From NCBI RefSeq assembly GCF_044324785.1, contig NZ_CP172127.1: a DNA stretch of 64,000 nt; one strand, written 5' to 3'. Positions 21,001 to 24,000 of the stretch are shown here, in pieces; the stretch's first letter is position 1, and the number at the start of each line of letters is the position of its first letter. Origin of the DNA: Escherichia coli. GTDB lineage: Bacteria > Pseudomonadota > Gammaproteobacteria > Enterobacterales > Enterobacteriaceae. The position numbers were made by a program.

Positions 21001-24000
21001 CCAAGCGAGCCAAAACGGTTTTTCGTCACAATGATTTCAGCAAATGGCGCGGCGCTACTGTTCTCGTCATATACCGCTTCCCGATAGAGCATGATGATTG
21101 AGTCTGCGTCCTGCTCAATGCTTCCTGAATCACGCAAATCTGCGTTTGTCGGGCGTTTGTTTGGTCGCTTCTCAACATCGCGCGAAAGCTGACTCAGGGA
21201 GATAACAGGCGTTTTCAGGTCTTTCGCCATCGCCTTCAGGCTTCCGGAGATGTGAGCAATTGCGAGGTCGTTGCGGTCTGCTTTCGGCTTCTCAATCAGG
21301 CCAAGATAATCCGCCATGATGAGTGACAGGTTTGGATTTTCCTGTTTGTGCCGCTCTGCGATTGAGCGAATTTCTTCTACCGATAACCGCGAGGCATCGA
21401 CTACCCATACATCCAAATCTGCAAGCTGACTCATGCCGTTAGCAACACGTGCCCAGCCTTCGTCATCCATCGATGCAGGATTTCGTAGCACGCTAACCGA
21501 CATCCTCCCGGCGTTGGCAATGCTTCGCTCTGCAATCTGCAATGCGCTCATTTCCATCGAGAAAATCAACACTCCGCGCCGGACGTCAGAACCAGGAATA
21601 ACACGACTTGCAACGCCTTCGGCAATCTTCAGCGCCAGTTCGGTTTTCCCCATACCAGGACGAGCAGCGATTATCACCAGGTCTTCCGCGTTCATCCCTC
21701 CGGTGATGGCATCAAGTTCTTCGATTCCGGTCTTCAGGGTATCTGACTCTTCTCCGTTCCTCAGACGCCTGTCAAGCGTGTCAGTGTAGTCAGTGATGAT
21801 TTCACCTAACCGTACAGGTTTAACCTCGTCACGGGGCTTTCTGATGGCTGAGAGACGCTTTACAAGCTCATCCATCGCTTGACTCGATGCGTCGATGGTT
21901 CCGCTCTGAATTGGTTCACGCATTTCATCCATGATTTCCAGCACCAGACGGCGGTGATAGTTATCCGCGACCATTCCGGCATATCCCTTCAGGTTTGCGG
22001 CACTCGGGCAGTTTTTGCTGGTCATCAGGATTGACGTGAAATGCTCCTCTCCGCACGCCTCGGCAACCATCAGCGCATCGATTAGGTTTCTGTTTCTCGC
22101 CTGCTTGCGGATAACCTCGAAGGCTTTCCGGTAGAGCGGAATTGAAAACGCTTCCGGCTCCAGCGTTGCCAGAACGTCGCTGGCGGTTGGTGTTAATCCA
22201 CCAATCAGCAGGCCACCGATAACGCTCGCTTCGATATCCTGTCTCATGCAATCCCCCTGTCTGCAAACTTCCCTTCCCGTACTCCAGTTAACGAATCTTC
22301 CCTCAGCAGGTAATCAAAATCAGCTGTCCAGCCCGTGTCGTTGTCTCCGAAGTAAAACGGCTTGGCCTGATGCACAAACGCCCTGACATACGCTCTGAAA
22401 CCGTCCACGTTTGGCGTTTTCAGTTGCGGGATGATTTTCTTCAGGCGGCGTTTGCGTTTCTCGTTGACCGCAACAGCGTGTGGCAGTCTGTCACCGACTT
22501 CGGTGTTGTAGGCGTTCAGGAAGGATTCGTAGTCGATTCGTTCTGCCTTGCGACGTTCAGGTTTAACCTGCCCATCGCCACCCCCGTTAGGGGGTAAGGG
22601 GGTATTTGTATTTATTGTCTTTTGTATATTGTCTTTTGTGTTTAGCTGACTTGGCTTATACCCATTAGCCGACTTGGCTAATGTTTTATTAGCTGTTTTA
22701 GCTAATGTTAAGCTGTCCTGGCTAATCCACTGAGAAACAACCTTGTTCACTCCGATTTTCACGCCATCAGCAATGAGGAATTTACGCTCGATAAGCTGGC
22801 GCTTGGCAGCGCAAACATGAGTGTGATGAATACCTGTCATGGCTGCTATCTGCGTGTTTGTGAGTCGATCCATCGGCTTATTGAATCCGTATGTCTTGCG
22901 CATGATAGCGAGCATCACCTTCAACTGCCGGACGGTTAAATCAGCCATCAGCAGACTGTCGGTAATCTCGTTAGCAACGCGCATGAAACCATCTTCGGTA
23001 TCTGCCACGCGATGCTCCACGACCTCAAGTTGAGGCCTGTAATCAGCTAACTTAACGACGCCCATGTTTCACTCCTGCTTTGGCTAGTCTGTAAACACCA
23101 ACAAGGCGCTCTGCGAACGCCCTGTTATTTGCTGCGGCTACCACTAATCCCTCAGGTGAATCAGGGTGTCGAATCTCTTCTTTTTCCTGGTATTTCTTAC
23201 GACGTTTTGTCATAATGACTCCTGTGGATTGATCCAGTCTTTCTACATCAGGCCTCGAAGAATTCGCCGTTCTTCGGGGCTTTTTCTTTTGTCAGGTAAT
23301 TGGCAAGCCGCTTAGTCAGCTCAGCCATTTCATCGTCTTCGATTCCGTATTCCAGAACAGCCAGCATCATGCTTACCTGCGAGAAGAAACCATTCTTCCA
23401 TCGGCTTACCTGATATTCAGGAACCCCCATTGCTCGAGCGAATGTCTTCTGCCCCATCAGTGCCAGTTTGTTCAGCAAGGCTGACTCGATGCGAGCCGCT
23501 TTCTTGCTTTTAGTTGCAATAGTACCCATAGATAATTTCCTTAATGATTAGATAGAGTTGGCTTCGCAAAGAAACGCAAAACCATAGAGATTTGTTTCTG
23601 GTAATGCCCTTTTTCAGGGCGGGGATGTGTAAGAGCGTTAATAACTTAAGCGGCCATTAATTCAGGCCAGATGCTTTCCCAATCAACCGGATGAAGGTCT
23701 TTGCGAGTCACTTCACCATTGCTGAACTTCTCAATCAGAACACAAAGTGCTGCGCCCAATTCATGATTACGGCTAAGTGCTTTCCTCAAATAGCCGATAG
23801 AAGTTCCGCACTTGGTGGCAAATTCTCTCTGCTCTTCCAGTGAAAGGGAGTTCAGATACAAGCGGAGTTCTTCCATTTGCTATCTCCTTCCCGTTGTTGA
23901 ATAAGATGAGTTTACCTGTAGGTAAAAAGCAAATCAATACCCATAGGTTATTTACCGGCAGGTAATCAAAGATAGAATTAAATCATGGATAAATACGAAC

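Follow-up and report, generated by a model that had tools for sequence, protein, structure and literature searches.

The prophage replication region and its intragenic repeats

The DNA analysed here, referred to as the window, is a stretch of 64,000 nucleotides (nt) from Escherichia coli (NCBI RefSeq assembly GCF_044324785.1, contig NZ_CP172127.1), and our subject is a candidate replication origin that lies inside a prophage initiator gene. This O-like gene runs on the minus strand (22244-23065) and encodes a protein of 273 amino acids (aa) that matches the Pfam family Phage_rep_O at aa 19-113 (E=6e-33). Its N-terminal part (aa 19-113) is a winged-helix domain for origin binding; a linker follows, whose coding sequence holds the candidate origin, and then a C-terminal domain (aa ~165-273). 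Directly downstream, and overlapping the O stop codon, lies the gene for a DnaB-like replicative helicase of 458 aa (20871-22247, minus strand; Pfam DnaB_C E=1e-77, DnaB N-terminal domain 4.5e-13), the presumed partner of the O C-terminal domain. A phage helicase of the DnaB family thus takes the place after the initiator that a lambda P loader would have, which is the arrangement of the P22/HK97 type (gene 18/12 type). An original prediction, made from the sequence alone, had placed an iteron array at 22600-22725 within the replication initiator gene, as in lambda, where the origin sits inside O. The match of the 22244-23065 frame to Phage_rep_O bears out that location; the strand needed correcting, as the host gene runs on the minus strand, and all parts of the origin are described below as read on this coding strand.

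Four dyad-symmetric iterons with the consensus TTAGCY-N5-RGCTAA occupy gene nt 341-424, equivalent to aa 114-142, straight after the DNA-binding domain. Their start-to-start spacing is 20, 24 and 23 bp. Iteron 1, TTAGCCAGGACAGCTTA (22709-22725; gene nt 341-357), has a degenerate right arm, and its position is kept in diverse relatives, in which the sequence reads TTAGCC-N5-AGCGAA. Iteron 2, TTAGCT-AAAAC-AGCTAA (22689-22705; gene nt 361-377), is a perfect 6+6 palindrome, as is iteron 3, TTAGCC-AAGTC-GGCTAA (22665-22681; gene nt 385-401), in which the symmetry extends to CATTAGCC/GGCTAATG. Iteron 4, TAAGCC-AAGTC-AGCTAA (22642-22658; gene nt 408-424), abuts an AT-rich region of 39 bp, ACACAAAAGACAATATACAAAAGACAATAAATACAAATA (22603-22641, GC ~25%), a putative DNA-unwinding element. 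As in the lambda origin, this region of about 40 bp follows right after the last iteron and starts with ACACAAAAGACA, and it carries two copies of ACAAAAGACAA 14 bp apart (22615-22625 and 22629-22639). GC content is 25-30% at 22600-22660 against ~50-55% over the remaining O gene.

To the right of the AT-rich region lies a GC-rich element, CCCCC-TTA-CCCCC-TAAC-GGGGG-T (22580-22602), within which ACCCCCTAACGGGGGT (22580-22595) forms a perfect palindrome with a 6-bp stem. It sits where the right-hand inverted repeat of lambda lies. The sequence is unrelated to the lambda repeat, TCAGAGAATTC/GAATCCTCTGA, and its type is conserved in relatives. This C5-N3-C5-loop-G5 element may be a functional part that is absent from lambda, for example a melting boundary or a helicase-loading hairpin. 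We also observed that the element encodes a Pro/Gly-rich PLPP..GG linker, and that the same C-run/C-run/G-run pattern recurs to the right of the AT-rich region in otherwise divergent origins (equivalents in L125, L128, L130, L149, L150 and L157), among them one of a Pasteurellaceae phage (Aaphi23).

Detection and significance of the repeats

A repeat finder recovered four copies of AGCYNNNNNRGCTAAT starting at 22644, 22667, 22691 and 22711 (spacing 23, 24 and 20), which are 75-100% identical to the reference copy, together with a 16-nt unit that is present twice, at an interval of 14 bp, in 22611-22640. Tandem Repeats Finder returned the same arrays with low scores. The self-complementary frame AGCYN5RGCT occurs eight times in the 64 kb, and four of these occurrences fall within 80 bp at the candidate origin. 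Among 2000 random 64-kb sequences generated under a first-order Markov model (Markov-1), none held a cluster of four within 100 bp and one held a cluster of three. The window contains exactly two copies of TTGTCTTTTGT (22615-22625 and 22629-22639), where 0.04 would be expected, and two or more copies were seen in 0 of 100 shuffles.

The tandem repeats of the original prediction are therefore real, as are its two copies of TTGTCTTTTGT, although several details required adjustment. The array proper consists of the four iterons, and the TTGTCTTTTGT copies belong to the putative AT-rich unwinding region instead. The predicted motif, AGC(C/T)G...TTGGCT, reflects a genuine repeat that is better described as the palindrome TTAGCY-N5-RGCTAA on the coding strand. 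The element also runs ~20 bp beyond the predicted start, through the GC-rich inverted repeat to 22580. One further palindrome, TTAGCCCTCATGGCTAA at 1692-1708, was considered as an iteron and rejected; it is isolated, has three mismatches to iteron 3, lies in a structural-gene open reading frame (ORF) of 461 aa (698-2083, minus strand) and probably arose by chance.

Comparison with the lambda and P22 origins

Lambda O binds four iterons of ~20 bp in the middle of gene O, and gene 18 of P22 contains four different repeats of ~20 bp (PMC8022706); lambdoid origins in general combine iterons with an AT-rich tract (PMC7466680). In the lambda record the iterons are annotated at 39034, 39054, 39078 and 39101, giving the spacing of 20, 24 and 23 bp that we observe here, and the P22 RefSeq entry (NC_002371) carries a rep_origin at 32840-32984 inside gene 18 with the remark "similar to phage lambda". 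The window, lambda and P22 origins can be aligned in register and have spacer bases as well as the ACACAAAAGACA junction in common, so that the predicted likeness to the lambda origin is upheld. In lambda, as here, four dyad-symmetric iterons of ~18 bp lie in the linker that follows the Phage_rep_O domain, beginning at gene nt 349 compared with nt 341 in our gene. The lambda AT-rich region opens with ACACAAAAGACA-TAT-ACAAAAGA, a start common to the window, and its ACAAAAGA repeat is the equivalent of the TTGTCTTTTGT copies. The lambda origin also lies downstream of cro-cII and has an inverted repeat to its right. The two systems differ in their iteron arms, which are TCCCTC/GAGGGA in lambda and TTAGC/GCTAA here, and in their helicases, as lambda O uses the loader P and host DnaB whereas the module in the window has its own DnaB-like helicase.

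The P22 origin occupies the same position in a homologous gene and shares the iteron spacing, but its arms read TTACC/GGTAA. The initiator is 51% identical to P22 gp18, rising to 60% in the C-terminal domain, and the helicase is 90% identical to P22 gp12. The AT-rich stretch is 100% identical between the two, and over the ~85 bp of AT-rich and GC block a single base differs, the last base of the TAAC loop. Identity at third-codon positions is 0.87-0.93 inside this block and 0.09-0.67 elsewhere, and where the amino acid is identical the same codon is used at 19 of 20 sites inside the core compared with 52 of 110 outside it (p=4e-5).

A further parallel is found in plasmid iteron origins such as those of pSC101, R6K and RK2 (review: PMC4980987), in which multiple repeats lie beside an AT-rich unwinding element and are bound by a winged-helix Rep protein. 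Plasmid iterons, however, are direct repeats, usually lie outside the rep gene and serve copy control by handcuffing, whereas those in the window are palindromes within coding sequence.

Constraint on the iteron arms acts on the DNA

To describe variation within the gene we used 67 full-length copies from viral contigs, which collapse to 59 haplotypes of at least 97.8% identity. In the iteron arms 1 of 40 positions is polymorphic, compared with 12 of 28 in the iteron centres (Y-N5-R) and 6 of 16 in the spacers between iterons. The contrast between arms and centres plus spacers (1/40 versus 18/44) is significant (Fisher p=1.4e-5), and it persists at third-codon positions, of which 0 of 12 vary in the arms against 10 of 16 outside them (7 of 10 in the centres, 3 of 6 in the spacers). 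The Y positions vary between C and T only and the R positions between G and A only, and iteron 4 shows no polymorphism at all in the 59 haplotypes.

These figures bear on a different account of the repeats, in which the DNA pattern is a by-product of a repeated linker peptide motif, LAK-T/S-AN, maintained by selection on the protein and with no cis-acting role for the DNA. The iterons do translate into a repetitive linker, ...SLTLAKTANKTLAKSANGYKPSQLN..., and relatives keep a similar LAKxANKTLA peptide. However, 14 of the 18 changes in centres and spacers are non-synonymous, while the arms, including every third-codon position within them, are avoided; it is therefore the DNA that is constrained, rather than the peptide. 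The corresponding peptides of P22 and lambda are unrelated to the one here, yet both phages have four dyad sites in the DNA at the same 20/24/23 spacing. Every site is moreover a DNA palindrome, a property that a peptide repeat does not need. We consider selection on the peptide alone to be highly improbable as an explanation, and favour constraint on a cis-acting DNA element.

The recognition helix and exchange of modules

Between phages, the iteron arms co-vary with the initiator's predicted recognition helix. At the start of this helix the sequence TGIHHTHVC is common to all six proteins that go with TTAGC iterons, whereas P22, with TTACC/GGTAA arms, has TGMAPTKCS and lambda, with TCCCTC/GAGGGA arms, has TKLPVKRCN. 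In an AlphaFold model of aa 1-113 (pLDDT 76) helices at residues 70-77 and 81-93 are followed by a beta-hairpin wing, and TGIHHTHVC starts the second of these. Its place after helix 70-77 and before the wing would make helix 81-93 the recognition helix of a winged helix-turn-helix. Foldseek returned weak, generic matches of the model to MarR, CRP and IclR winged-helix proteins (E~0.006-0.03), which speak for the fold class and for no specific family, and in a sequence search of the PDB no solved structure matched the initiator at E<=1. Since both the arms and the predicted recognition helix differ from those of P22, a different origin specificity is to be expected.

Two scans addressed how the parts of the origin are combined in other phages. 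Anchored on the 42-nt AT-rich sequence, the first found two upstream iteron families only, the HK97 type and the P22 type. Anchored on iterons 2-3, the second found TTAGC-class iterons in combination with five or more different right-hand modules. Each of these starts with ACACAAAAGA, runs on through 30-40 A-rich bases and closes with an inverted repeat. This inverted repeat is usually of the C-run/C-run/G-run kind, and in one type it is GTCATC-TTGC-GATGAC. Divergent O genes, with N-terminal identities of 46-67%, have variable N5 centres but TTAGC..GCTAA arms at the same four positions. The C-terminal halves of the TTAGC-class O proteins are HK97-like, P22-like or unrelated, and their partners are DnaB-like helicases of the P22 or HK97 type or, in contig L129, a protein of the lambda P family (Pfam E=1e-62). 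One N-terminal/iteron module combined with varied C-terminal and partner modules fits the classical division of O into an origin-specific N-terminal half and a partner-specific C-terminal half. It is rather probable, in our judgement, that TTAGCY-N5-RGCTAA iterons and TGIHHTHVC together define a distinct, experimentally uncharacterised class of origin specificity, which is exchanged as a unit against at least five right-hand modules, always at ACACAAAAGA.

The same observations raise the possibility that conservation of the AT-rich/GC block marks a recombination junction, that is, a patch of homology for mosaic exchange with no direct role in unwinding. That identical iterons occur with five or more right-hand modules, every junction starting at ACACAAAAGA, is what such a patch would produce, and the block is indeed an island of identity between genes that are otherwise ~50-60% identical. 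Roles in recombination and in unwinding are not exclusive, however, and all variants keep the A-rich stretch of 30-40 bp and the inverted repeat, an arrangement that PMC7466680 (citing Dodson 1986) describes as needed for unwinding in lambda. A junction without any function in unwinding is thus quite unlikely, and we retain the AT-rich region as the putative unwinding element.

Several observations on more distant or unusual members stand beside these results. In the Pasteurellaceae phages Aaphi23 and Pmp11 the C-terminal domain of O is 36-38% identical to ours; these phages have palindromes of their own, CCCGAA-N7-TTCGGG, and two 13-nt AT-rich repeats at the same location in the gene, where Aaphi23 also has TACAAATACCCCCCTTACCCCCC..GGGG. 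Contigs L129 and L152 from IMG/VR contain TTAGC-class O genes that appear to hold more than four iterons, which recalls the six-iteron origins of 933W-type Shiga toxin (Stx) phages. In L150 (IMGVR_UViG_2660238542_000005) the TTAGC-class O is followed by a DnaB-like helicase of 808 aa, ~350 aa longer than the others; the insert is apparently an intein or homing endonuclease.

Interpretation as a lambda-style origin

The locus combines a position in the middle of O, four dyad iterons about two helical turns apart, an adjacent AT-rich region and an early rightward operon, as in a lambda-type origin. We put at roughly 90% the probability that this locus serves a lambdoid prophage of the P22/HK97 type as its replication origin, within the sequence that encodes the linker of an O-family initiator. 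The repeats themselves are confirmed, and their interpretation as a lambda-style origin is supported; origin activity is suggested by homology and architecture.

Carrying the lambda model over by homology, early rightward transcription through cro-cII-O would both yield the initiator and cross the origin. Dimers of the N-terminal winged-helix domain would then bind the four iterons and wrap them into an O-some, and the resulting strain would melt the 39 bp of AT-rich DNA beside them, for which the GC-rich inverted repeat would form the boundary. The phage's own DnaB-like helicase would then be recruited by the C-terminal domain of O, instead of a loader of the lambda P type capturing host DnaB.

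A number of points weigh against this interpretation. Iterons 1 and 4 are imperfect palindromes in this copy. The region around the GC-rich hairpin (22565-22612), folded as single-stranded DNA, has no extra stability relative to composition-matched shuffles (z=-0.03), and the proposal of a thermodynamically special hairpin at this element was dropped on that result. The origin annotation in P22 rests solely on similarity to lambda. As these iterons stand next to different AT-rich variants elsewhere among phages, the identity of the AT-rich block with P22 could partly reflect recent mosaic recombination and not constraint. Finally, the set of P22-type gene 18 sequences comprises only six haplotypes, too few for its contrast between arms and centres to be informative (2/40 versus 2/44).

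Organisation of the prophage

The replication region belongs to a P22/HK97-like lambdoid prophage, as seen from its immunity and replication genes. An S24 (LexA/CI-type) repressor gene (23985-24671, plus strand) diverges from a cro-like gene (23646-23876, minus strand), which lies upstream of O on the same strand. The cro-like gene is followed by cII (23248-23529, minus strand; Pfam Phage_CII E=8e-30) and by a small ORF of 53 aa (23052-23213, minus strand), which lies between cII and O, overlaps the O start and is the positional counterpart of HK97 gp53 and P22 orf48. The order of cI on the plus strand and then cro, cII, the small ORF, O and helicase on the minus strand is the same in HK97 and P22. 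With cro, cII and O on one strand, early rightward transcription from the cI/cro intergenic region would cross the origin. A promoter scan of 22000-24100 did not locate pR; it gave one weak site, fewer than expected in shuffles.

On the plus strand at ~23208-23290 we observed a locus resembling that of the OOP antisense RNA, in which a conserved block covering the oop promoter and 5' end, ACTGGATCAATCCACAGGAGTCATTATGACAAA, aligns with P22 and HK97. A terminator-like hairpin with a 14-bp stem and a T-run (23250-23282, plus strand) overlaps the 3' end of cII. A scan of the window at Rfam gathering thresholds reported three tRNAs only, and no RNA family at the origin or the oop region.

An integrase ORF (29271-30431, plus strand) adjoins tRNA-Thr(CGU) (30446-30521), and beyond this end (30636-33091) proA and proB are annotated in the best E. 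coli matches. The integrase/tRNA junction is probably one end of the prophage, at the thrW attachment site. Judged by size and order, the ORFs to the left of the replication region look like P22-like morphogenesis genes, and a relative that carries the same O gene has morphogenesis genes of the P22 type. Coverage of the 25-kb stretch 10000-34999 stays below 80% in every complete E. coli genome of the collection, so the prophage is a new mosaic combination. The prophage also carries tRNA-Thr(UGU) (15393-15468, minus strand) and tRNA-Asn(GUU) (15474-15548, minus strand), a pair with 98.3% identity to its counterpart in phages 21, SfI and BTP1. According to a 2026 preprint, phages are rescued from the P2 OLD tRNase by phage-encoded Thr(UGU) tRNAs, that of HK446 among them, and the pair may accordingly be counter-defence cargo.

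HK97-type relatives and the Eru2 replication unit

At the nucleotide level the O gene is 98.4% identical to gene O of HK97, 99% to that of HK446 and 98.7% to those of Nil2, 1717 and 2851. This identity spans all 822 bp and every part of the origin, with point differences only, and in its C-terminal domain the O protein shows 100% identity to many HK97-type phages. The O/P module of HK97 (gp54/gp55) is near-identical in HK446, mEp213, Nil2 and the Stx2c phages 2851 and 1717, and its products have the same sizes as those in the window, 273 aa and 458 aa. The gene is present in 714 of 5426 complete E. coli genomes (~13%), and the exact protein on at least 1000 contigs. The HK97 GenBank record has no rep_origin feature, and the literature searched, which lies outside Juhala et al. 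2000 and Backhaus & Petri 1984, contained no explicit description of the HK97-type iterons.

It is conceivable that the element is an origin by descent that has become an inactive relic in a defective prophage, or that it now acts mainly as a set of O-titrating or autoregulatory sites. Prophages often decay, the window shows only part of this one, and plasmid-borne lambda iterons can inhibit phages that have the lambda replication module (PMC3349717). On the other hand, O and helicase both have full-length ORFs, with 98-99% identity to their counterparts in HK97, HK446 and mEp213, which are viable phages; all parts of the origin are intact and match the commonest haplotypes; and integrase, repressor, cro, cII, the tRNAs of the lysis region and the P22-like morphogenesis ORFs are retained. 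We therefore regard a relic or titration element as unlikely, and an origin that would still serve the prophage as the better reading.

The same module appears in the literature under another name. Llarena et al. 2021 (PMC8044961) describe Eru2, from the Stx2c phage of strain TW14359, as a replication unit of Eru2A (273 aa) and Eru2B (458 aa), and present it as non-lambdoid and not described earlier; neither "iterons" nor "origin of replication" occurs in their text. Eru2A (WP_000539354.1), as printed in their supplement, has one difference to the window protein over the ~210 residues shown. The sizes and domains of the unit (Phage_rep_O; DnaB domains) are identical to those in the window. This near-identity, together with the matching sizes and domains, identifies Eru2 as an O plus DnaB module of the HK97/P22 type, with a putative lambda-like origin inside eru2A. 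Membership concerns the replication module only, and we saw no evidence of an stx gene in the window.

Discussion

The arrangement described here is already known: it is the textbook lambdoid origin type, almost unchanged in HK97 and in many Shiga toxin phages. Our result is mostly a confirmation of that picture, which locates where this prophage would start replicating and illustrates that a cis-acting element hidden within coding sequence can be recognised from the sequence. What it adds is an explicit iteron consensus and the co-variation of that consensus with the recognition helix. It also provides a natural example of modular exchange, in which the N-terminal domain of the initiator and the iterons travel together and are swapped against modules for unwinding and helicase recruitment.

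Recent work implicates palindromic origin iterons in the triggering of defence systems, OLD among them (bioRxiv 10.64898/2026.07.10.737580), and the iteron class of these common E. coli prophages may be useful for studies of OLD-type defence. If the distinct specificity class is real, the 'non-lambdoid Eru2' of Stx2c phages would be an ordinary lambdoid replicon with an unrecognised intragenic origin. With Eru2 identified as the HK97/P22-type module, the iterons and AT-rich region in eru2A offer a concrete target for studying or typing the replication of Stx2c phages.

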